From contig OY843585.1 of the NCBI GenBank assembly GCA_963692945.1, positions 480,001 through 512,000 of the forward strand: a DNA stretch of 32,000 nucleotides. Direction: 5' to 3'. Source of the DNA: Bdellovibrionales bacterium (GTDB lineage: Bacteria > Bdellovibrionota > Bdellovibrionia > Bdellovibrionales > UBA1609). The notes beneath the pieces were generated by a model that saw only the letters and a list, made by a program, of their open reading frames with translations, was not told the DNA's origin and ran no database searches. Numbering within the stretch: position 1 is the first letter of the stretch; the number at the start of each line of letters is the position of its first letter. Below, in pieces: positions 16,279-26,933 of this stretch. The position numbers and the translations under genes are program-made.

Positions 16279-17883
16279 ATGAGTACTTGGGGTAAGTTAG
16301 GTCTTTTATTAAGTGGATTTTGTTTGATTGTGATGGCAGGGAGTCGCTCTGTTTTAGGAGTTTGGCATCCTTTCCTCTATGGGTTTTTAGCTTTATTTAT
16401 TGTAGGGCTTCTTGTTTCTTTAATTATAGACTATAAGTTTTATTTAGATTTTTTATCTATGAGGACAACCAAAAATGGTTTGAGTCTTGGTTGGTCTTTA
16501 ATATTGCTTCTTATTTTATTGGTAGCGTTTGGGTATTTAGGCAATCGGTTCAATAAGTCTTTTGACTTAACAGAAGAGGGTATTAACTCTTTAGCAATTC
16601 AAACAAAACAAGCTTTAGATAATTTAGAGGAAGAATTAAAAATATATGTTTTTTACAAAGGAGAAAAAATCTCTCAACAAACAATAGCATCCAAACAACT
16701 TTTGAAAGACAATTTATTTCTTTATAAACAAGAATCTTCAAAAGTTAAGGTGTTGTATATTGATACTTATAAAAACAATCTTCTATCTGAGAAGTTTCTA
16801 AACAATCTTTCTGATAAAAACAATAAAGAGATTTTTGTTTTTATAGAGTATGCAAATCGTAGAGTTAGAGCCGATGAACCTTTTACAGAGCAAAGTTTAA
16901 CTTCTGCTATGATTAAAGCAAAGAAAAGAGAGACAAAGGAAATTTATTTTGTAGTCGGTCATGGTGAAAGAAATTTAAAAGGGGAGCAACCCGATGGTGT
17001 AAAAGCTTTTGAACAGTATTTAAAAGATTCAGGTTTTATTTTGAAGGAATGGAGTTTTGTTCAAGATGGAGTTCCAACAAGAAATCCTCCTTTAGTCCTT
17101 GTTATAGGTCCGAGTCGTCCTTTTTTAAAGGCTGAACTCAATTGGTTTAAAAAGTATTTATCAGAGGAAGGTCGTCTTATTTTTGCGATTGATCCTAAAG
17201 AAAAACACAATTTAAGAAATTTTTTAAAAGAGTATGGTGTGGTTTTTAAAGATGGGTTTATTGTGAGCCAAATAGGGATGATCTATGGAGGAGTTACAAA
17301 AGCTTTAGGAGTTAGTTTTGATAGTATGAACTCTATCACGAAACGTTTTTCTTCTGGTAAAGATGTTGCCTTTTTTGAAAGAGCCAGTCCTTTAGATATT
17401 TTACCAGAGGCTTTTAATAAATTTAAATACTCTTATCTTATTCGCAGTCATAATAAAAGTTTTTCTGTTCCTCAATTAAGTAAAAAAATTAAAGTTACAA
17501 AATTTGAATCTTTAACTATGGCTTTAGAGGTTCGTCCTAAAGAAGATGGTCACGAAGGAGAAAGTGAAGAAGAACATAAAGGGCATGGACATGAAAAGGA
17601 TCAGGACTCAGAAGAGGGGTTTCGTCTTGCTGTCTTTGGAGATAGTGATTTTGTGAGTAATCGTTATTTTTATGAAGGTATCAATAGAGATTTGATTTTA
17701 AACACAGTGGTTTCTTTTTTAGGAGAAGAAGATTTGGTGACCATACGGCCTAAGCAACCTAAAGGTACAAAAGTAGATTTAACTCGTGTTCATAGAATGG
17801 GTATTGTTTTTTTAATGATAACTCTTCCTCTTGTTTTTCTTATAGTGAGCTTGCTTTTATGGTATCGTAGGAGAGAGGCGTGA
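16279..17883 (+). CDS. GldG-like ABC-transport auxiliary protein
   Basis: N- and C-terminal TM helices flank a large ectodomain. VVGHGE and FGDSDF motifs as remembered for the GldG/ABC_transp_aux family. A His/Glu-rich insert is encoded at about 17539-17616. Confidence 0.7.
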   Translation: MSTWGKLGLLLSGFCLIVMAGSRSVLGVWHPFLYGFLALFIVGLLVSLIIDYKFYLDFLSMRTTKNGLSLGWSLILLLILLVAFGYLGNRFNKSFDLTEEGINSLAIQTKQALDNLEEELKIYVFYKGEKISQQTIASKQLLKDNLFLYKQESSKVKVLYIDTYKNNLLSEKFLNNLSDKNNKEIFVFIEYANRRVRADEPFTEQSLTSAMIKAKKRETKEIYFVVGHGERNLKGEQPDGVKAFEQYLKDSGFILKEWSFVQDGVPTRNPPLVLVIGPSRPFLKAELNWFKKYLSEEGRLIFAIDPKEKHNLRNFLKEYGVVFKDGFIVSQIGMIYGGVTKALGVSFDSMNSITKRFSSGKDVAFFERASPLDILPEAFNKFKYSYLIRSHNKSFSVPQLSKKIKVTKFESLTMALEVRPKEDGHEGESEEEHKGHGHEKDQDSEEGFRLAVFGDSDFVSNRYFYEGINRDLILNTVVSFLGEEDLVTIRPKQPKGTKVDLTRVHRMGIVFLMITLPLVFLIVSLLLWYRRREA

Positions 17884-19232
17884 GAAAAAGGCTTGTTCGC
17901 CATATTGTTTCTCTGGGTTTTGTTTTTAGTGTTGTAGGTTATGCCTATTATGAGTACTTAAAAACTAAAGAATCTAAAAAGATAGAATCTCAAAGCAGTT
18001 ATTTTCTTACTCAGCAGTTTAAAGACCTTTCTGGAATAAAAATAAAAAAAGAAAAAAAAGTCATAACGCTTTTAAAAAAAAATCAAGATTGGTTTTTAAA
18101 AAAGCCCCTTAGAGATGTAGCCTCTTTTTCTGAAGTGTCTCGTTGGTTTGATGAAGTTAGAAATCAAAGAATAAGAGAGATTTTTATAGAGGGAGATATT
18201 GTATGGAAGGATTATTATCTTGAAAGGAGTCCTGAAGTTCAGTTGGAGTTTTCAAATGGAAGTTCAATAACTTTTTTAGTGAGTTCTAAAAGCTCCTTTG
18301 ATGAAAAATATTTTATAAAAAGAGACAATAAACTATTTGTTGGTGAGAAATATTTTTTTACGGAAGTGAATTCAAAAAGTTTTGATTCTTTTCGGCGTAA
18401 AAAGATCATTCCAAGTTATGGTCATCCTATAAAAGTTGTCCTTAAAAGTAACAGAACGCTATCTTTGAATTGGGATAATTATAAATGGTCTTTTAAAGAG
18501 AAAGATTTTCCTTTAAGTAACAAACGTTTAGATGATTTTTGGTCAGACTTATCTAGTATTGAGGCCCGATCATTTAAAGAAAGGGCAACGGCTTTTTATT
18601 TAAAAAAATATGGATTGGATCAAGCAGATTATCAAATACAGTTAAGTTATAGTGGTGGGAAGAAAACAACCATTAAAATAAATCCTGTAAAAAACAATCA
18701 GGTTTATGTTTATGGCTCTCATAGAGATTATATTTTAGAAATATCAAAAGAGGATATGGAAAAAATAAAAATTTCTAAAAACGATATTCGCGATCATGGT
18801 CAGGCTTTTCGGTATGAAAAAGATAAAGTTTCCAGTTTGGAGTTAAAATCTGAAAAGATATCTTACTCAGTTATAAAGAAAAAAGATCAATGGGTTTCTC
18901 TTTCTTCTCCAAAGAAAAAAGTGGATTCCAAAAAAGTTCAATCTCTACTGAACTCTATTTATAAGTTAAGAGGTCAAAAATATAAAAAGGGAAACCTTAA
19001 AAAAGTTGCAGCTTCTATTATAATTAAAGGAGCTTCTGGAAAAGTTTTACTGGAGTTAAAATCTGATTCAGGTGCAGGTTCTATCGTGTGGGTTCAAACC
19101 AATCTTTCTAAAGGTTTAGTGGCTATTTCTAAGTCTTCTTTAGATTTGATTTTGCAAAAACATGTTTACCATTCGGTTGTAAATTTGAAAAAAGACAAAA
19201 CAAAAAAATCAGATAAATCAGATAAAGAATAG
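17880..19232 (+). CDS. DUF4340-like protein (usual fourth gene of GldG-type ABC operons)
   Basis: GTGA overlap with the upstream stop. N-terminal TM anchor. The assignment rests on operon context plus general architecture. Its last ~125 nt are repeated twice downstream. Confidence 0.55.
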   Translation: MRKRLVRHIVSLGFVFSVVGYAYYEYLKTKESKKIESQSSYFLTQQFKDLSGIKIKKEKKVITLLKKNQDWFLKKPLRDVASFSEVSRWFDEVRNQRIREIFIEGDIVWKDYYLERSPEVQLEFSNGSSITFLVSSKSSFDEKYFIKRDNKLFVGEKYFFTEVNSKSFDSFRRKKIIPSYGHPIKVVLKSNRTLSLNWDNYKWSFKEKDFPLSNKRLDDFWSDLSSIEARSFKERATAFYLKKYGLDQADYQIQLSYSGGKKTTIKINPVKNNQVYVYGSHRDYILEISKEDMEKIKISKNDIRDHGQAFRYEKDKVSSLELKSEKISYSVIKKKDQWVSLSSPKKKVDSKKVQSLLNSIYKLRGQKYKKGNLKKVAASIIIKGASGKVLLELKSDSGAGSIVWVQTNLSKGLVAISKSSLDLILQKHVYHSVVNLKKDKTKKSDKSDKE

Positions 19233-19283
19233 ATTGTAGATACTATGGAAACAAGTGGCTAATAACTACTGACAATAGTGATT

Positions 19284-19304
19284 CTAGATCATGATCTAGT
19301 TTTT
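19284..19304 (+). terminator. candidate intrinsic terminator after the DUF4340 gene
   Basis: Perfect 16-bp palindrome ctagatcatgatctag followed by ttttt. The stem is AT-rich and therefore weak. A near copy lies at 20762-20784. Confidence 0.35.
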
Positions 19305-19310
19305 CTATCT

Positions 19311-19338
19311 TTGTATAAAAAGCCTAAGAAGGTATAGG
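19311..19338 (+). promoter_or_regulatory. candidate promoter of ankyrin cassette 1
   Basis: TTGTAT, 16-nt spacer, TATAGG. The paralogous site at 20789-20816 reads TTGTAT-16-TATAGT. Confidence 0.3.
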
Positions 19339-19427
19339 TTACTTACTTAGATTTTTAATTGAATTAAATGCTTAGATATAGTTAATTAGATATTAGTGTT
19401 AATCTTTTCAAAAAACTTAAAGAGGTA

Positions 19428-20186
19428 ATGATGAAAACTTTATTTGCATTTACATTTGTATTTTTAATGAGTGGACTTTATATTCAACCGAGTTTTGCTA
19501 CTGAAAAAAAACAATTAGGTGAATCTTTATTAAGGAATGCAAGAAACGGAAATATAAACGCAGTGAAAGGTTTATTAAAAGACGGTGCAGATGTCAATTA
19601 CCTTGGAGTTGTTGAAAGAGATAACACTGCTATGAGTACTGCACTTATAGAAGCATCTACATATGGACATTACAATATGGTCAAGTTCTTGTTAGATAAA
19701 GGAGCAGATCCAGATGTTTTTAGATTACAATATATCTCAAAACATGTATCAAGTTCATTTCATGGAGCAGTCAGAAATGGGCATTTCAGTATTGTAAAAC
19801 TTTTGGCAGAAAGAGGGGCAAGTATTCCACCTAAACGTTTAAAAAAATATCCTGACTATTACAAAAGAAACATTCTACTTCATGAAGCGGTTAAATATAA
19901 ACATCTCAATATAGTGAAATTCTTATTAGATAAAGGGGTAGATATAAATGCAAAAGATAAAAATGGAAACACGGCCTTGCACTCACTAATTAAGCAGGGT
20001 AAGAGGGGTCTTTTAGATAAAAACACGTTTGATATAGCAGAATTATTGCTATCAAGAAAAGCAGATGTAAATGTAAAAAATAATCTTGGTCTAACTCCTT
20101 TCATGTCGGCAGATTCTTATAAACGAAAAACATTTTTAAAATTTTTAAAAGCAAATGGAATTAAAGGACAATACATTCAAAAGTAA
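19428..20186 (+). CDS. secreted ankyrin-repeat protein, paralogue 1
   Basis: Signal peptide MMKTLFAFTFVFLMSGLYIQPSFA. ANK motifs (GADVNY, NMVKFLLDKGADP, LLHEAVKYKHLNIVKFLLDKGVDINAKDKNGNTALH). RBS AGAGG. Confidence 0.85.
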   Translation: MMKTLFAFTFVFLMSGLYIQPSFATEKKQLGESLLRNARNGNINAVKGLLKDGADVNYLGVVERDNTAMSTALIEASTYGHYNMVKFLLDKGADPDVFRLQYISKHVSSSFHGAVRNGHFSIVKLLAERGASIPPKRLKKYPDYYKRNILLHEAVKYKHLNIVKFLLDKGVDINAKDKNGNTALHSLIKQGKRGLLDKNTFDIAELLLSRKADVNVKNNLGLTPFMSADSYKRKTFLKFLKANGIKGQYIQK

Positions 20187-20219
20187 AAAACCTGCGTTGG
20201 TAAGAGAATAGAAATTAGT

Positions 20220-20360
20220 TCTAAAGATTTAGTGGCTGTCTCTAAATCTTCTTTAGATTTGATTTTTCAAAAACATGTTTACCATTCGGTTGTAAAATCG
20301 GTTTTAAAAAAAGACATGAAACAAAATTTGAAAAAAGATAGAACAAAAAAAATCAGATAA
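20220..20360 (+). pseudogene. detached copy (X2) of the 3' end of the DUF4340 gene
   Basis: Reads SKDLVAVSKSSLDLIFQKHVYHSVVKSVLKKD...* in the same frame as the native SKGLVAISKSSLDLILQKHVYHSVV. There is no upstream coding continuity. Nucleotide homology to 19107-19272 continues past the stop. Confidence 0.65.
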
Positions 20361-20393
20361 AGAATAGATTGTAGCCACTATGAAAATAAGTGG

Positions 20394-20763
20394 CTAATAA
20401 CTACTAACTACTGATGATAATAATACTCACAAAAGATTCTACATCCTAAAAGTAAAATACGGTTAATAACTACTAACTACTGATGATAGTGCTCTCACAA
20501 AAGATTCTACATCCTAAAAATAAAATACGGTTAATAACTACTAACTACTGACGATAATAATACTCACAAAAGATTCTACATCCTAAAAGTAAAATACGGT
20601 TAATAACTACTAACTACTGATGATAGTGCTCTCACAAAAGATTCTACATCCTAAAAGTAAAATACGGTTACTAACTACTAACTACTGACGATAATAATAC
20701 TCACAAAAGATTCTACATCCTAAAAGTAAAATACGGTTACTAACTACTGATGATAATAATACT
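20394..20763. repeat. tandem repeat, ~69-bp unit, about 5.4 copies, two alternating variants
   Basis: Unit starts (taataac/tactaac) fall at 20395, 20464, 20532, 20601, 20669 and 20738, giving periods of 68-69. The variants differ at gatgataataatactcac versus gatgatagtgctctcac. Stops occur in all frames. Confidence 0.9.
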
Positions 20764-20788
20764 AGACCATGATCTAGTTTTTTTATCT

Positions 20789-20871
<83 letters not shown>

Positions 20872-20949
20872 GGTTTTTAATTGCATTAAATACTTAGATA
20901 TAGTTAATTATATATTAGTGTTAATCTTTTCAAAAAACTTAAGGAGATA

Positions 20950-21672
20950 ATGATGAAAATTTTATTTACATTTGTATTTTTAATGAGTGGATTTTATATT
21001 CAACCGAGTTTTGCTACTAAAAATAAAAAAGAACAATTAGGTGAATCTTTAGTAAAGCATGCAAAAAACGGAAATATAAACACAGTGGAAGGTTTATTAA
21101 AAGACGGTGCAGATATTAATTATTTCTTGGGCTTTGAGAATTCACTTATATCAGCATCTAGAGTTGGAGATTACAATATGGTCAAGTTCTTGTTAGATAA
21201 AGGAGCAGATATAAAGCGGGGTAATGTAAACATAATCACAAAATATATGAGAACTCCACTTCATGCATCAGTCAGATATGGGCATTTCAATATTGTAAAA
21301 TTTTTGACAGAAAGAGGGGCAAGTATTCCACCTAAAATCTCAAAAAAATATCCTGACTATTACAAAAGAAACATTCTACTTCATGAAGCGGTTAAAAATA
21401 AACATCTCAATATAGCGAAATTCTTATTAGATAAAGGGGTAGATGTAAATGCAAAAGATAAAAAGGGAAACACGGCCTTGTACTTAATAGTTAAGAAGGA
21501 AGGTAAGAAGGGTCTTTTAGATAAAAACGCGTTTGAAATTGCAAGATTATTGGTATCAAGAAAAGCAGATGTACATACAAAAAATGATCTTGGTCTAACT
21601 CCTTTTAAAGTGGCAACTTCTTATAAACGAAAAAAGTTTTTAAATTTTTTAAAAGCAAGTGGAGTTAAATAA
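20950..21672 (+). CDS. secreted ankyrin-repeat protein, paralogue 2
   Basis: Signal peptide MMKILFTFVFLMSGFYIQPSFA. ANK repeats (TPLHASVRYGHFNIVKFLTERGA, LLHEAVKNKHLNIAKFLLDKGVDVNAKDKKGNTALY). Confidence 0.85.
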   Translation: MMKILFTFVFLMSGFYIQPSFATKNKKEQLGESLVKHAKNGNINTVEGLLKDGADINYFLGFENSLISASRVGDYNMVKFLLDKGADIKRGNVNIITKYMRTPLHASVRYGHFNIVKFLTERGASIPPKISKKYPDYYKRNILLHEAVKNKHLNIAKFLLDKGVDVNAKDKKGNTALYLIVKKEGKKGLLDKNAFEIARLLVSRKADVHTKNDLGLTPFKVATSYKRKKFLNFLKASGVK

Positions 21673-21734
21673 TATATATTCAAAGGTAAAAGACCTGTGT
21701 TGGTCTTAGATTTTCAAAAAAACTTAAGGAGGTA

Positions 21735-22514
21735 ATGATGAAAATTTTATTTATATTTGTATTTTTAATGAGTGGATTTTATATTCAACCGAGTTTTGCT
21801 ACTAAAAATAAAAGAGATTTATTAGGTACATCTTTATTAAAGAATGTAAAAAACAGAAATATAAACACAGTGAAAGGTTTATTAAAAGACGGTGCAGATG
21901 TCAATTACACTGGAGATGAAGTAACAGATAATACTACTGCACTTATAGAAGCATCTAGAAATGGAGATTACAATATGGTCCAGTTCTTGTTAGATAAAGG
22001 AGCAGATCCAGAGCTTAGTAGAATCGGCACAGCAACAAACCATATATCAAGTCCACTTCTTGTAGCAATCAGAAATGGGGATTTCAATATGGTAAAATTT
22101 TTGGTAAAAAGAGGGGCAAGAATTCCAGCAACTGGACTCTTAAAAAGATATCCTAACTATTACAAAAGGCAAAGGCTACTTCATGAAGCGGTTAGATATA
22201 AACATATCAATATAGTGAAATTCTTATTAGATAAAGGGGTAGATGTAAATGCAAAAGATAAAAATGGAAATACTACCTTGCACTCACTAATTAAGCAGGG
22301 TAAGAGAGGTCTTTTAGATAAAAACACGTTTGATATAGCAGAATTATTGCTATCAAGAAAAGCAGATGTAAATGTAAAAAATAATCTTGGTCTAACTCCT
22401 TTCATGTCGGCAGATTCTTATAAACGAAAAACATTTTTAAAATTTTTAAAAGCAAATGGAATTAAAGGATATAAGTTCAAAAGAAGTAAAAGACCTGTTT
22501 TGGTAAGAGAATAG
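21735..22514 (+). CDS. secreted ankyrin-repeat protein, paralogue 3
   Basis: Same signal peptide and ANK repeats. It starts 62 nt after paralogue 2 with its own AGGAGG RBS but no intervening promoter block. Its 3' part is near-identical to paralogue 1. Confidence 0.85.
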   Translation: MMKILFIFVFLMSGFYIQPSFATKNKRDLLGTSLLKNVKNRNINTVKGLLKDGADVNYTGDEVTDNTTALIEASRNGDYNMVQFLLDKGADPELSRIGTATNHISSPLLVAIRNGDFNMVKFLVKRGARIPATGLLKRYPNYYKRQRLLHEAVRYKHINIVKFLLDKGVDVNAKDKNGNTTLHSLIKQGKRGLLDKNTFDIAELLLSRKADVNVKNNLGLTPFMSADSYKRKTFLKFLKANGIKGYKFKRSKRPVLVRE

Positions 22515-22558
22515 AACATCAATTCTAAAGATTTAGTGGTAAAAGAATAAAAATCAAT

Positions 22559-22690
22559 TCTAAAGATTTAGTGGCTGTTCCTAAGTCTTCTTTAGATTTG
22601 ATTTTGCAAAAACATGTTTACCATTCGGTTGTAAAATCGGGTTTAAAAAAAGATAAACTTTCTAAACCTGATAAATCAACAAAACCTTAA
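22559..22690 (+). pseudogene. detached copy (X3) of the 3' end of the DUF4340 gene
   Basis: Reads SKDLVAVPKSSLDLILQKHVYHSVVKSGLKKDKLSKPDKSTKP* in frame. It is preceded by a stuttered ~32-nt segment (22508-22539 / 22544-22575). Confidence 0.65.
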
Positions 22691-22723
22691 ATTTTTGTCT
22701 CTGATTGTGGTTTTCAGCTATTT

Positions 22724-22779
22724 TAATGTGCCTTTTATAGCACATTAAGTGAGGTTTAATGTGCCTTTTACAGCACATA
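22724..22779. promoter_or_regulatory. two tandem inverted repeats (AATGTGC-N8-GCACATT and ATGTGC-N8-GCACAT), candidate operators
   Basis: taatgtgccttttatagcacatta (22724-22747) and taatgtgccttttacagcacata (22757-22779), 40-95 nt upstream of the HTH gene start at 22820. Confidence 0.4.
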
Positions 22780-22819
22780 TTTCTTTACAAAATACAGATT
22801 TTAGAGTAGGCTTAGATTT

Positions 22820-23314
22820 ATGAAACACGATATTAAAAAAATAAAATCTCAAAGACGTATCATGGATAAAAAACTTACATCATGGAAAAAACTTAGATTA
22901 GACAGAAGACCTCCGAAAGGTTGGTTGCGATCCATTCGAGAATCTTTAGGGATGAGCATTACACAACTAGCAAAAAGAGTTGGAGTTAGTAACCATTCAT
23001 CCATTGTCCGTTTAGAAGAAAGAGAATCTCAAGGTAAAGCCTCTATTGAATCTCTTAGTAAAGCTGCTGAAGCTATGAATTGTAAGTTTATTTATGCGAT
23101 TGTTCCAAAAAAAGAATTTTCTAGTTTAGAAGATATTATAGATCAACGAGCAAAAAAAATGGCAAAGAATATAATTAGAGAAGTAGATCAAACTATGAGA
23201 CTTGAGTCTCAAGGTGTTTTTACTCAAAAAGAGATACAAAAACAAATCTCTAAGACGTCTGTAGATTTAAAATCTAAGATCATCTCTTCTTTCTGGAAAG
23301 ATACTAAAGAATAA
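22820..23314 (+). CDS. mobile mystery protein A-like HTH protein
   Basis: The HTH segment LRSIRESLGMSITQLAKRVGVSNHSSIVRLEERE and its pairing with a downstream Fic gene match the mobile mystery protein A/B pair as I remember it. Confidence 0.65.
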   Translation: MKHDIKKIKSQRRIMDKKLTSWKKLRLDRRPPKGWLRSIRESLGMSITQLAKRVGVSNHSSIVRLEERESQGKASIESLSKAAEAMNCKFIYAIVPKKEFSSLEDIIDQRAKKMAKNIIREVDQTMRLESQGVFTQKEIQKQISKTSVDLKSKIISSFWKDTKE

Positions 23315-23917
23315 ATGAGTAAAATTAAGTTAGATTACCCAAGTGGAGCAACACCTCTTGATAAGAATGAAATGGCAGGCCTTATACCTAGTTATATTAC
23401 AACGCAAGATGAATTAAATGATTTAGAACAAGAAAATATCAAAGTAGCTACTGAATGGACTTACACTAAAAACTTTTCAGATATTCTCAATGTAACATTC
23501 TGTCTTGATCTTCATAAAAAAATGTTCAATGAGGTATGGAGCTGGGCTGGAATGTTTAGACAAACTCAAAAAAATTTAGGTGTTGATCCACAAGAAATCG
23601 GAGATAAATTAGAACAATTATTTCAAAATACAAAGTATTGGATTGAAAACAACATTTATGAATGGGATGAATTAGCTACTAGGTTTCATCATAAGTTAGT
23701 TTCTATTCATTGCTTTTCAAATGGAAATGGTCGTCATGCTCGTTTAATGACTAACTTACTTTTAAAAGTAAATAATAAAAAACTTTTTACATGGGGAAGT
23801 AAAAGTTCTAAATGTCCGATTGAAACTCAAGGTACAATTCGCAACTCTTACCTATCTGCTCTTAAAAAAGCAGATAATAATTCTTTTTCTGATCTTATTA
23901 TTTTTGTTAGAAGTTAG
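23315..23917 (+). CDS. Fic/DOC family protein (mobile mystery protein B-like)
   Basis: Fic motif HCFSNGNGRHAR at residues 132-143 (nt 23708-23743). The ATG directly follows the stop of the upstream gene (TAAATG). Confidence 0.8.
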   Translation: MSKIKLDYPSGATPLDKNEMAGLIPSYITTQDELNDLEQENIKVATEWTYTKNFSDILNVTFCLDLHKKMFNEVWSWAGMFRQTQKNLGVDPQEIGDKLEQLFQNTKYWIENNIYEWDELATRFHHKLVSIHCFSNGNGRHARLMTNLLLKVNNKKLFTWGSKSSKCPIETQGTIRNSYLSALKKADNNSFSDLIIFVRS

Positions 23918-23942
23918 GTTTAATTTATTTGATTTTCAGTTT

Positions 23943-24296
23943 TTAATTAACACACTCTGTTATTTCTTTAAATTTTTTAAACATAGTAATAGAACATTTT
24001 TTATGTATTTCAAAACCTTTATCTGGTTGCAAACATTCGTTAGACTGGCTTGCAATTGCATTTAATTTTTTGCCCTTATCTTTGCTTACTTGAAGAAAAC
24101 CTGAACCTAAAGTGCGAATTGTGTTAAGATAAGAAATAGTACAATTAATAAACATCTCGTCACTTCTAACTTTTTCAATACATTTAATTGTTTCGCTAAA
24201 AAAATGACAACGTAATTCTTGATTAGATGGAGCGGAATTGTTAGGTGCTATTCCCCACGCTTTAAATGTAATCAAGAAAAGTAAAAGATACCTCAT
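23943..24296 (-). CDS. small secreted Cys-containing protein, unknown function
   Basis: 117 aa. Signal-like N-terminus MRYLLLFLITFKAWG. Six Cys residues in the mature part. No motif recognised. Confidence 0.45.
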   Translation of the reverse strand: MRYLLLFLITFKAWGIAPNNSAPSNQELRCHFFSETIKCIEKVRSDEMFINCTISYLNTIRTLGSGFLQVSKDKGKKLNAIASQSNECLQPDKGFEIHKKCSITMFKKFKEITECVN

Positions 24297-24399
24297 AAAT
24301 TCTCCTTATTTTTGAAATCTAATGTATATAAACATAAGAGTTACCCTTATTTTTGTCAATTATTTTTTTAAGGTTTTAGAAAATTTGAAATTGATGTGT

Positions 24400-24577
24400 A
24401 TTTCCGTTACTAGGGAATGCATTATACTAAAGAAACTTGTAATAATTACACACGCCCCCGTATATAACAGGTTTCAGTTACTAGGGAATGTGTTGTACTA
24501 AAGAAACTGTTAATATGCCCAATAGGACTTATGAAAAGGAGTTTCAGTTACTAGGGAATGTGTTATACTAAAGAAAC
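24400..24577. CRISPR. orphan CRISPR-like mini-array: three 37-bp repeats, two spacers (34 and 33 nt)
   Basis: R1 24400-24436 atttccgttactagggaatgcattatactaaagaaac has 4 mismatches to R3. R2 24471-24507 has 1 mismatch. R3 24541-24577 is gtttcagttactagggaatgtgttatactaaagaaac. The spacers ttgtaataattacacacgcccccgtatataacag and tgttaatatgcccaataggacttatgaaaagga are unrelated to each other. The six-frame track contains no cas-like ORF. Confidence 0.6.
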
Positions 24578-24688
24578 TGAGTGTAAGCACCTACATAAAA
24601 GTCTAAGGCTTGTACCGCACTATGCTTTTAATATTAAGACACATGGAAGATTGTCTGAATTGAGAACAAACGGGAGGATTAAAAACCC

Positions 24689-25225
24689 TTGAAAATGAAA
24701 AAATATTTTTCTAGAAAATTTCTTTTTTCCATAAAAGGACGATTAAATAGAAAAGACTATGTATTATTTAATTTAGTTTTTTTATCTTTAATCTCTTTAG
24801 TTGTAATTTTAAGACCTGTGGTTGAAAATATTTCTACTTCTCTCCCTCCTATTCAGACTCTGTCTATTCTTCCTCTGATTCTTCTTCTGATTCAGACTGT
24901 TCTTCTCGCTCTTTTTCTGATTCTTCTGGCAGCTATAATTTATATTCTAGTAGCTTGTTATATTTTTGGATCAATTTCAACAACTATAAAAAGGCTTCAT
25001 GATTTCAATTTTAGTGGTTGGTGGTTGTTTTTTGCTTTTATTTTGTTTGTAATTTTATGTTTATTAGAGCTTGTTATGACTGGGAAATTGGAAAGTGCTA
25101 TCGATTCATTTGACGAATTAATTACATATAATTTATTTGGGAGTATTTTTGCTCTATTGCTTATATTCAAAAAAGGAACAGTAGGGAAAAATAAATTTGG
25201 AGAGGGATCCATAAAAGTAGTTTAA
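24689..25225 (+). CDS. DUF805 family inner-membrane protein
   Basis: GRLNRKDY near the N-terminus and KRLHDFNFSGWW are the DUF805 hallmarks. Multiple TM helices. The start is ambiguous (TTG 24689 or ATG 24695). Confidence 0.7.
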   Translation: MKMKKYFSRKFLFSIKGRLNRKDYVLFNLVFLSLISLVVILRPVVENISTSLPPIQTLSILPLILLLIQTVLLALFLILLAAIIYILVACYIFGSISTTIKRLHDFNFSGWWLFFAFILFVILCLLELVMTGKLESAIDSFDELITYNLFGSIFALLLIFKKGTVGKNKFGEGSIKVV

Positions 25226-25285
25226 AATAATAAAATGGTTTTAAAATCTTATTTTTAACAACTTGTTTTAAAATACAAAAAAAGC

Positions 25286-26392
25286 CTAAAAGCTTTTTGT
25301 GATATTGAGATCAAAATCTTTTTTGAGAGAAGGGATTTTTTTAGGAGGAGATTTCATAACATTTAACCAGTTTTCTGGAGTCTCCATACATAAAAAAATA
25401 TTCCAGTCTGGGTCATGCTCTTTAAATTTGTTCAAGACATATTGAAACATCTTTTGACGAACTTCATTGTCATAGCGAAGTTTTCCATCTTTGCCTCTAA
25501 AAAACTCTCCTCTGCAAACAAGACTTTCCATTCCAAAACGTTTTCTCATTATGGATTTTTGAAAGGGTTGGAATCGTAAAGCTCCTAAGGAAATATGAGT
25601 CACTTCTTTTGCAGAAAACAAGGAAGTGATTTGTTGAACCAACTCTCCATAATTTGTTTTCCATTCGGGATGATAAATAAGAGGGTCTATATGAAAAGAT
25701 AGTCTAAATCCTTTGTCTCTCACTTTTTGAGCGGCTTCCAATCTTTTTTTAAGAGAGGCTGTTCCATGTTCTTCTTTTGTAACAATGTATTCAGGGTTGA
25801 TAGACCAACTCACAACAACATTTCCAATATGGTTTTCCTTTTCAAAATTTTTAATATTGTCAGATTTTGTTTTAAATTCAAGAAGCCAGTTTGGACAATC
25901 TTTAAAGAAATGAACTAATTTTTTAGAGTAAAGACTTATGTCATCAAGGCTTAAACTATCTGTTTGTTCCCCTGTTCCAATGCGAATGTATTGGTCTTTG
26001 TATTTGTTTTTTAAATCTTTTAATTCCTCTAAGGCCTGCTCTATGTTGGTGTAAATAACAACGGCAGGGAAGTTGATAAAAGATTGTAAGTAACAATAAG
26101 AGCAATCCATTTCACAATGTTGACCAAGATTTAAAACATAATAATTGCAACACATCATTTTAGGATTAGCTCCAGGACATCTTTTGAAAAAAGACCCTTT
26201 AAACTTTTTTAAGAGAAGCGTTTTTTTACTTTTATCCATATCAGAAGCCGATAAACTTCCTTTTTTAAAATCATCTTCTTCTATAATTTGAATTTTACTT
26301 TTAGGGAAAAGAGATAAAATCCTTTGAGCCACTTCACTGTTTTTAGAAGATCTTTCAATATAAATTTTTTCAAAATAATTTAGGAGTTCCAT
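25286..26392 (-). CDS. spore-photoproduct-lyase-like radical SAM protein (SplB family)
   Basis: CEMDCSYC is a CxxxCxxC radical SAM cluster motif. IGTGEQTDSL resembles the SPL family. I prefer the ATG at 26392 (MELLNYFEKIYIE...). The longer track ORF to 26485 would overlap the upstream gene by 53 nt. Confidence 0.75.
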   Translation of the reverse strand: MELLNYFEKIYIERSSKNSEVAQRILSLFPKSKIQIIEEDDFKKGSLSASDMDKSKKTLLLKKFKGSFFKRCPGANPKMMCCNYYVLNLGQHCEMDCSYCYLQSFINFPAVVIYTNIEQALEELKDLKNKYKDQYIRIGTGEQTDSLSLDDISLYSKKLVHFFKDCPNWLLEFKTKSDNIKNFEKENHIGNVVVSWSINPEYIVTKEEHGTASLKKRLEAAQKVRDKGFRLSFHIDPLIYHPEWKTNYGELVQQITSLFSAKEVTHISLGALRFQPFQKSIMRKRFGMESLVCRGEFFRGKDGKLRYDNEVRQKMFQYVLNKFKEHDPDWNIFLCMETPENWLNVMKSPPKKIPSLKKDFDLNITKSF

Positions 26393-26432
26393 TATTTTAG
26401 TTGTTCCGTGATTTTTTTGTGAAGAGATGTGA

Positions 26433-26933
26433 TTAATTGTTCCATAATTTTTTTTCTTTTTTAATGGTATCTTTGATTTGTTCAAGATTTTTTATTTTTT
26501 GTTCTAAATCTTTTATAGAAGAGCTTTGGAAAGAAACTTCTAAACACCCTTGGTCTTTATTGCGAACCCATCTTCCTTTCAAAAAAGATGACCAAGGTAA
26601 GTTTTTTATAATTTGAGTCCTCTGTTTATCTTGTTTAGAAGACAAAGGGTATCTTAAATCTTTTAGTTTTTTTAATAGAATTTTTGGATCGTGTTCTTTT
26701 TCAAAAAGAATCTTAAGAGATTTTCCCATAAGAAGCAATTCTCCACTGAGCTCTAAAATTTGAGAACCTTGGGAGTGACTAGGTTGATTTTGTCCTATCC
26801 ACTCTAAAATGGGTTTAATAGAATCCAATTTAGAAAATTCTGTGAGAATGCTCAATTCTCTAAGACTTAGTTTTTTATCTTTCACCCAAGATTTAAAAGG
26901 AAGAGAGTGTTTTAAAATTTGAGGAAGTTCCAT
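26433..26933 (-). CDS. hypothetical protein
   Basis: 166-aa ORF immediately upstream of and co-oriented with the SPL-like gene. No motif recognised. Confidence 0.45.
   Translation of the reverse strand: MELPQILKHSLPFKSWVKDKKLSLRELSILTEFSKLDSIKPILEWIGQNQPSHSQGSQILELSGELLLMGKSLKILFEKEHDPKILLKKLKDLRYPLSSKQDKQRTQIIKNLPWSSFLKGRWVRNKDQGCLEVSFQSSSIKDLEQKIKNLEQIKDTIKKEKKLWNN

Follow-up and report, generated by a model that had tools for sequence, protein, structure and literature searches.

A DUF4340 gene end repeated around three ankyrin genes in a Bdellovibrionales genome: probable origin by one insertion and subsequent homologous recombination

Introduction

How can the end of a protein-coding gene come to stand three times around a group of ankyrin genes when no recombinase lies beside them? 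This question is raised by a 32,000-nt stretch of DNA from a Bdellovibrionales bacterium (assembly GCA_963692945.1, contig OY843585.1, positions 480,001 to 512,000; this whole stretch is hereafter called the window, and coordinates refer to it), in which an intact DUF4340 gene is followed by three ankyrin-repeat genes (ank1, ank2, and ank3) and by two further copies of its own 3' end. A preliminary description of the locus read the pattern as the integration of circular elements carrying a replacement copy of the target gene end, and held that such elements would have to be mobilised in trans or by an unrecognised mechanism. Our analysis favours another account, to which we assign a probability of about 0.6, namely a founding insertion that displaced the gene end, followed by ordinary homologous recombination and without any recombinase-less cassette system. 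As it stands, the locus holds three diversifying ankyrin genes in a tandem array that is specific to this lineage and lies in the insertion-prone gap between the DUF4340 gene and a convergent gene of the SPL family.

Results

Three copies of the DUF4340 gene end

Local alignments placed two more copies of the final ~127 nt of the DUF4340 gene downstream of it as direct repeats (X2 and X3, with X1 denoting the end of the intact gene; Table 1), and homology among the copies began at 19106, 20219, and 22558, respectively, at the common sequence TTCTAAAG. Within the 78-nt core, X1 differed from X3 at 3 positions (with a longest identical run of 55 nt) and from X2 at 5, and X2 differed from X3 at 4, corresponding to identities of 94-96%, and a 50-mer from this core matched the window exactly three times, compared to 0 matches in 100 shuffles. 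The three copies noticed in the preliminary description were thus confirmed with small coordinate corrections, as were the positions of X2 and X3 after ank1 and ank3 (32 nt and 43 nt past the respective stop codons) and the statement that both fragments remain open in the original DUF4340 frame, with which their translations agree.

Beyond the core, the copies run into Lys-rich tails (t1, t2, and t3) of 16-21 residues that contain no domain; in the complete protein, too, DUF4340 was the only domain found by Pfam. At 19184 / 22636 the identity between X1 and X3 changed abruptly, the core being 96% and the tail 67% identical, and a 6-nt ATCGGG insertion was the sole indel at this boundary. The tails t1 and t3 aligned without gaps over 52 nt with their stop codons in register, giving a score of 18 compared to 9.0 ± 1.6 in dinucleotide shuffles (0 of 1000 reached 18), and the likeness stopped a few bases past the stop codon. 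Judged from these alignments, X1 and X3 are both complete gene ends in which the repeat stops where the gene stops; recombination through homologous gene sequence would be expected to leave a repeat of this kind, its stop codons in register. All three core differences between X1 and X3 were non-synonymous, so that the likeness of the cores is not explained by purifying selection, and the substitutions in X2 and X3 were likewise mostly non-synonymous; both are inert relic copies of the gene end. In an alignment of 10 orthologues the tails were uninformative on which tail is ancestral, all of them being Lys-rich and of low complexity.

X2 is a hybrid of the other two copies. Up to 20314 it is X3-like, agreeing with X3 at the bases equivalent to 19114 and 19125 and in a 6-nt ATCGGK insertion, and from there through the stop codon and past it is X1-like: its tail t2 is that of X1 (t1), and its stop codon, the sequence past the stop, and the intergenic region also follow X1. 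One extra A shifts the frame of the tail. We also observed that X2 lies in frame with ank1 with one TAA stop between them (20184-20360), and that, through the first copy of a 35-nt stutter, X3 begins in the frame of ank3, past the TAG stop of the latter (22512-22548); this arrangement is probably a coincidence, since the reading frame of the filler between gene and repeat differs from one case to the other.

Table 1. Coordinates of the features at the DUF4340-ankyrin locus, in window positions
Feature	Position	Strand	Description	Basis
DUF4340 gene	17880..19232	+	intact, 450 aa	Pfam PF14238, E 6.6e-20; full-length alignment with 10 orthologues of 437-483 aa
X1	19106..19232	+	functional gene end; core 19106-19183, Lys-rich tail t1 19184-19229, stop TAG 19230-19232	local alignments, core statistics, translation
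Intergenic region I	19233..19427	+	imperfect hairpin, palindrome CTAGATCATGATCTAG with T-run (19284-19309), promoter-like hexamers, (TTAC)2 at 19339-19346, ribosome-binding site	
ank1	19428..20186	+	ankyrin-repeat protein, 252 aa, signal-peptide-like N-terminus	Pfam Ank_2, E 2.4e-32; paralogue alignment
Filler p	20187..20218	+	between ank1 and X2 (AAAACCTGCGTTGGTAAGAGAATAGAAATTAG); makes the illegitimate junction p|X	
X2	20219..20360	+	relic hybrid gene-end copy	alignments, diagnostic sites, translation
Minisatellite	20395..20748		69-bp unit, 5.2 copies	tandem repeat finder
(TTAC)13.8 tract	20817..20871		directly 3' of a TATAGT hexamer, upstream of ank2	tandem repeat finder
ank2	20950..21672	+	ankyrin-repeat protein, 240 aa	open reading frame list, Pfam, paralogue alignment
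Hairpin after ank2	21690..21707		AAGACC-TGTGTT-GGTCTT	
ank3	21735..22514	+	ankyrin-repeat protein, 259 aa	open reading frame list, Pfam, identity comparison
Tandem stutter	22501..22574		35 nt, across the p|X3 junction; period 35, 2.1 copies, 92% matches	tandem repeat finder
X3	22558..22690	+	relic, probably displaced older gene end; core 22558-22635, tail t3, stop TAA 22688-22690	
mobAB module	22718..23917	+	accessory module, separate from the ankyrin array; twin palindromes 22722-22778, mobA (HTH) 22820-23314, mobB (Fic) 23315-23917	NCBIfam TIGR02612, TIGR02613
SPL-family radical-SAM gene	25286..26485	-	conserved right-hand neighbour of DUF4340 in L001, L002, L006, L007; far edge of the insertion zone	

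Two units with one common junction

The repeats delimit a unit alpha, made up of X1, tail t1, intergenic region I, ank1, and filler p, and a unit beta, made up of X2, t2, an intergenic region I', ank2, ank3, and filler p again, after which the array closes with X3 and t3. Each unit carries its own leader and ribosome-binding site. Region I' is region I enlarged by the 69-bp array and the TTAC run, and region I is homologous to 20363-20408 and 20735-20838 at 83-85%. The filler and its junction with the gene end (p|X) were the same before X2 (20187-20219) and before X3 (22484-22557/22558), and the filler had no homology to DUF4340 sequence upstream of 19106 in local alignments. Being common to both units, the junction p|X was formed once and then copied.

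The repeats within unit beta, described earlier as 69-bp repeats and (TTAC)13, were recovered as 5.2 copies and (TTAC)13.8, and the minisatellite could also be resolved into a 137-bp higher-order unit in 2.6 copies with 98% matches. All five matches of the 69-bp unit in the window lay within the minisatellite, and just ~24 nt of it were present at the equivalent site in region I of unit alpha; upstream of ank1, the position equivalent to the TTAC tract held two TTAC units only. The long tract upstream of ank2/ank3 is, from its sequence, a candidate phase-variation tract. The stutter reported at the right junction was present, with a period of 35 nt and not of ~32 nt. In the copies of the element that follow ank1 and ank3, the 3' arm of the hairpin found after ank2 was lost, and the junction of the ank2|ank3 tandem duplication lay just 3' of the ank2 hairpin, where the CTTTTCAAAAAACTTAAGGAGG leader is joined. 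A consensus scan did not flag the palindrome with its T-run or the TTGTAT/TATAGG hexamers in region I, for which the labels of terminator and promoter are plausible, as putative regulatory roles.

The ankyrin DNA occupies an insertion zone

The DUF4340 gene is the final gene of an operon that comprises ABC_tran, ABC-2 permease, ABC_transp_aux, and DUF4340 genes (Pfam). Its nearest orthologues were 48-69% identical at the protein level, and one more distant match was labelled Bdellovibrionales. In four of the five relatives with readable contigs (L001, L002, L006, and L007), the stop codon of DUF4340 abuts or overlaps that of a convergent SPL gene. Given this adjacency, window positions 19233-25285 (~6 kb) are a lineage-specific insertion zone, and the empty site in the relatives identifies the ankyrin DNA as an insertion. 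Within the zone lie the ankyrin array with X2 and X3, a mobile-mystery-protein A/B (mobAB) module, a small minus-strand open reading frame (ORF), a CRISPR-like mini-array, and a DUF805 gene. At the loci of the relatives the DUF4340 end was not duplicated, and homologues of the ank genes, the intergenic region, and the 69-bp unit were absent. The G+C content of the window was about 30% throughout, with no compositional break at the array. The convergent DUF4340/SPL junction seems to tolerate insertions.

The preliminary description had expected an empty site in which a DUF4340 gene with an X3-type tail is directly followed by twin inverted repeats. An empty site was indeed found in the abutting DUF4340 and SPL genes, and the predicted flank proved wrong: as an ancestral DUF4340 flank or attachment (att) site, the twin palindromes were rejected, being conserved upstream of mobA at an unrelated locus. 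Two of the relatives differed at the junction in other ways, with a Cu/Zn superoxide dismutase gene replacing the SPL gene and a neighbouring 166-aa ORF at L005 (6560-7251), and a 450-nt non-coding gap at L007 (9315-9764).

A private family of diversifying ankyrin genes

Identity among the three ankyrin genes was patchy. Positions 20007-20168 of ank1 and 22308-22469 of ank3 were identical over 162 nt, ank2 and ank3 shared 96-98% identity at the 5' end, ank1 and ank2 shared 93-97% in mid-gene, and other 60-nt windows of all pairs went down to 41-55%, for a sliding-window range of 41-100%. This pattern reads as a gene-conversion mosaic, and the 162-nt tract is consistent with recent gene conversion. 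All three proteins begin with a signal-peptide-like N-terminus, MMKxLF...SGxYIQPSFA|T, from which the products look secreted. The ratio of non-synonymous to synonymous divergence (dN/dS) among the paralogues was 1.5-2.1 (Nei-Gojobori). When the observed substitution spectrum was applied at random, the number of amino-acid changes was about neutral, and 99-100% of the simulated sequences gained a stop codon; that all three real ORFs are open despite this expectation indicates genes maintained while their sequences diversify. These results suggest that the family is under diversifying selection.

The family was confined to the locus. A search with ank3 against 5.8 billion protein clusters returned three members (100/75/66% identity), each of them on the 1.56 Mb contig that holds the window, and the next-best match beyond this trio was a generic ankyrin protein at 35%. 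Against one genome per species for 185,579 species (GTDB, without the genome of the window), only generic ankyrin proteins at 24-33% identity were retrieved, and plasmid and phage collections gave only short generic ankyrin-repeat similarity. With its TTAC tract, minisatellite, gene conversion, and near- or above-neutral amino-acid change in open frames, the locus looks like a contingency-type family of secreted effectors, which would point to a role in host or prey interaction. A small AT-rich Bdellovibrionales-like genome keeps a private, fast-diversifying ankyrin trio.

Search for mobility machinery and other copies

No integrase, transposase, or recombinase family was found by Pfam and NCBIfam among the ORFs tested, which included every ORF of at least 90 aa in 14.5-26.9 kb and 1-6.4 kb, with several ORFs of the operon and of a biotin cluster left out; in this respect the earlier statement that no recombinase lies in or beside the cassettes held. 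The X core had no match in JGI metagenomes, and neither the cassette nor its ankyrin gene was found at a second location or in a second genome among protein clusters, GTDB species genomes, JGI metagenomes, plasmids, and phages. Folded as single-stranded DNA, X1, X2, and X3 gave z-scores of 0.39, -1.79, and -2.17 for the top strand and -0.09, -1.84, and -1.96 for the bottom strand, with a short local hairpin only. For the hairpin AAGRTTTAG-N9-CTAARTCTT at the left edge of X, L001 has a perfect form and L002 and L005 have imperfect ones, whereas L006 and L007 lack it.

Discussion

A probable founding insertion followed by host recombination

The anatomy of the array constrains its history. As the preliminary description had argued, no trailing X would remain after a simple tandem duplication of [X + ank], and a founding state X...ank...X is therefore required. 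In the account that we favour, incoming DNA consisting of a diverged gene end with t1, the intergenic region, and one ankyrin gene would have recombined with the resident DUF4340 end, and its far side would have been closed by the single illegitimate joint p|X, either in one crossover with a circularised fragment or by homology-facilitated illegitimate recombination. The product would have been X-t1-ank-p|X-t3, with the resident end X3-t3 pushed downstream. Unequal homologous crossing-over between the two X repeats would next have doubled the whole unit and generated the hybrid X2, after which a short tandem duplication would have produced ank2 and ank3, replication slippage the 69-bp array, the (TTAC)n run, and the 35-nt stutter, and patchy gene conversion would have kept the X cores and parts of the ankyrin genes near-identical. 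All of these steps need general host recombination only and no dedicated recombinase.

Several earlier proposals can be re-read in this light. The suggestion that X3 is the displaced ancestral end agrees with the topology of the insertion, which makes X3 and its tail the older end, and with the homology of t1 and t3; we infer this tail identity, together with the order of events and the mechanism of the first step. RecA-type recombination in E. coli needs roughly 25-50 bp of homology, for which the 55 nt of perfect identity between X1 and X3 are ample, so that the absence of a recombinase is no puzzle. The claim that mobilisation must occur in trans or by an unrecognised mechanism is not supported, host recombination being sufficient in view of the 55-nt identity, the hybrid X2, and the gene conversion. 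Of the proposed integration with a replacement target end, the founding displacement of the gene end is retained, and the repeated integration of mobile cassettes is not, given an ankyrin family found at this locus only and a p|X junction formed once. The levels of divergence (33% between t1 and t3, ~15% between I and I', and a dS of 0.09-0.13 among the ankyrin paralogues) fit the proposed order of events.

Some considerations weigh against this history. The nearest relatives are only 48-69% identical in the DUF4340 protein, and the pre-insertion state of the lineage itself was not directly seen; nor was a donor with a DUF4340-ankyrin adjacency found. Two successive integrations of the same circle would equally predict the hybrid X2 and the shared junction, which favour duplication by parsimony, together with the absence of other copies. 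The drop from 96% to 67% between core and tail needs an extra assumption: gene conversion would have to be confined to the core, or the low-complexity tail would have to evolve fast. Finally, the 32-kb window represents ~2% of a genome of ~1.56 Mb, in the remainder of which a recombinase acting in trans or more copies of X may lie.

Alternative explanations

Three direct repeats that include a gene end, with a different outermost tail, reproduce the att topology of islands that target 3' ends, and the replacement end has kept the DUF4340 gene intact. Circular cassettes with a replacement DUF4340 end might accordingly have integrated site-specifically at least twice, by means of a recombinase that either is encoded at another place in the genome or belongs to an unrecognised kind; the empty site in the relatives is in keeping with this, and prophage e14 at icd/icdC offers a precedent for a displaced protein-gene end (PMC13626634). 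We nevertheless consider it quite unlikely, as no recombinase was present in the island or in any window ORF tested, the cassette and its ankyrin gene recurred at no second location or genome, the mosaic identity shows active homologous exchange at the locus, and the repeats, at ~127 nt with variable tails, are far above typical att cores and have no short fixed core. A 9-bp inverted repeat, its arms 9 nt apart, does mark the start of X2 and X3 and looks like the core site of a recombinase; as a conserved core this hairpin was rejected, since it is only partly conserved in the orthologues and follows from the SK(D)L...SKS codons. A more far-reaching version would make X the attachment site of an undescribed integron-like cassette-capture platform, in which a trans-acting or non-canonical enzyme inserts and excises ankyrin circles and regenerates the DUF4340 end each time. 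Were this so, the end of a protein-coding gene would serve as an integron-like platform for secreted effectors; we hold it to be very improbable. A reading as an integron array was rejected: X has no attC-type fold, there is no intI, and what lies upstream is an ABC-transporter operon.

An origin without any incoming DNA, which we regard as unlikely, would start from an ankyrin gene already resident downstream of DUF4340 and a tandem triplication of [X-tail-intergenic-ank-filler], the last unit having lost its intergenic region and ankyrin gene, for example at the insertion of the mobAB module, which begins only ~27 nt past the X3 stop. Head-to-tail units with one common novel junction are a tandem-duplication signature, and slippage and duplication have evidently been frequent here. 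However, this requires an additional deletion whose left edge falls exactly at the stop codon of the gene, the relatives have no ankyrin gene downstream of DUF4340, and the divergence of t3 from t1 (33%) exceeds that of the units (~15% in the intergenic region, with an ank dS of 0.09-0.13), which places X3-t3 before the unit duplication. The serial order of a conserved core, a sharply diverging tail, and then a downstream gene also recalls the functional swapping of tips known from rhs, CDI (contact-dependent inhibition), and T6SS (type VI secretion system) loci, whereby alternative DUF4340 tails paired with cognate ankyrin genes would be stored as orphans and exchanged through the core; the fragments are still open in frame, and orphan tips keep core homology, as in rhs (PMC2935791). 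Such a function is very doubtful here: the tails are short, Lys-rich, and domain-free, t2 is t1 over again, X2 carries a frameshift, the substitutions in X2 and X3 are mostly non-synonymous, the DUF4340 protein belongs to a transporter operon and is no delivered toxin, and what comes after X3 is the unrelated mobAB module. That the locus is an assembly artefact of collapsed or mis-joined repeats is hardly credible; it is dense in repeats, but the copies are diverged (X core 94-96%, ankyrin proteins 66-75%), each has unique flanks, and the window comes from a single 1.56 Mb contig.

Comparison with known systems

Unequal crossing-over between direct repeats is expected to give n units with n+1 repeats, a hybrid middle repeat, mosaic identity, and unstable copy number. 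The hybrid middle repeat and the mosaic copies of the present array match this process, which explains the growth of the array and not the founding pair of X repeats; the head-to-tail units with one common novel junction, together with the hybrid middle repeat and the mosaic identity, are all features of tandem duplication with gene conversion. Like chromosomal integron arrays, the locus alternates genes with a repeated element of ~100 nt. In contrast to such arrays, it contains no intI and no attC hairpin, its units have their own leader and ribosome-binding site, and X is a fragment of a neighbouring protein-coding gene.

The founding step has closer parallels elsewhere. In the C-terminal displacement of rhs genes, homologous recombination with a circular intermediate through the conserved 3' part of a resident gene brings in a new end together with its downstream gene or genes (Jackson et al. 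2009, PMC2935791). As in rhs, the old end at our locus would have been pushed downstream as an orphan that is still homologous in the core, without the help of a dedicated recombinase, and there is a sharp fall in identity where core gives way to tip. The tips differ from those of rhs in being short Lys-rich tails and not toxin domains, the downstream genes encode secreted-looking ankyrin proteins and not demonstrated immunity proteins, two of the three tails are one and the same, and internal duplication, not serial acquisition, would account for most of the growth of the array. For the effector-immunity arrays of the Vibrio cholerae T6SS, the suggested mechanism is homology-facilitated illegitimate recombination, with one homologous anchor and one illegitimate joint (Kirchberger et al. 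2017, PMC5361080). In those arrays, too, the downstream genes have 3' remnants of the upstream gene between them, but each acquisition is independent and has its own junction, whereas both internal junctions here are copies of one. At icd, the 3' end of the gene is the insertion site of prophage e14 (and of phage 21), which supplies a replacement end and leaves the icdC pseudogene (PMC13626634). A displaced C-terminal fragment likewise lies at the far side of our insert, but e14 has its own integrase and is excised site-specifically on SOS induction, whereas the present locus has no integrase, a cargo of 3.4 kb, and an extra middle copy.

We regard the locus as a new example of a known process, gene-end displacement by homology-anchored insertion followed by tandem amplification with concerted evolution, and it extends the rhs-style footprint of C-terminal displacement to an ordinary housekeeping operon gene. 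One homology-anchored insertion and unequal crossing-over reproduce every junction, and gene-end repeats around a cargo with no visible recombinase do not by themselves signal a new mobility mechanism.

Neighbouring modules

The twin palindromes that follow X3 (TTTAATGTGCC...GCACAT, occurring twice, 33 nt apart) had an almost exact counterpart in L008 (9410-9470), which precedes mobA at an unrelated locus. From this conservation they belong to the mobAB module, probably as the operator of the HTH/Fic pair. In the relatives, homologues of mobAB lay at other loci, without an integrase, DUF4340, or ankyrin gene nearby. The mobB gene also matched the PADLOC candidate defence family PDC-S04.

Further downstream, at 24401-24579, three copies of a repeat of ~36-38 nt (GTTTCAGTTACTAGGGAATGTGTTRTACTAAAGAAAC), the first of them degenerate, were spaced 70-71 nt apart, giving a CRISPR-like mini-array with two unique spacers of ~33 nt and a repeat that is unstructured as RNA. 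Despite this geometry, no cas gene was found within the 32-kb window; the repeat had no exact match in metagenome and viral collections, both spacers had none in the viral collection, and Rfam returned no match in the locus. At the opposite end of the window, beside tRNA-Gln (1987-2061), the minus-strand region 186-1490 encodes a 234-aa protein with an Hjc/PD-(D/E)xK nuclease domain, which adjoins an HTH protein and matched the CARF_PDDEXK/Csx1 models of PADLOC (E 1.8e-9); it may be a CRISPR-ancillary or defence gene, 23 kb away from the mini-array.

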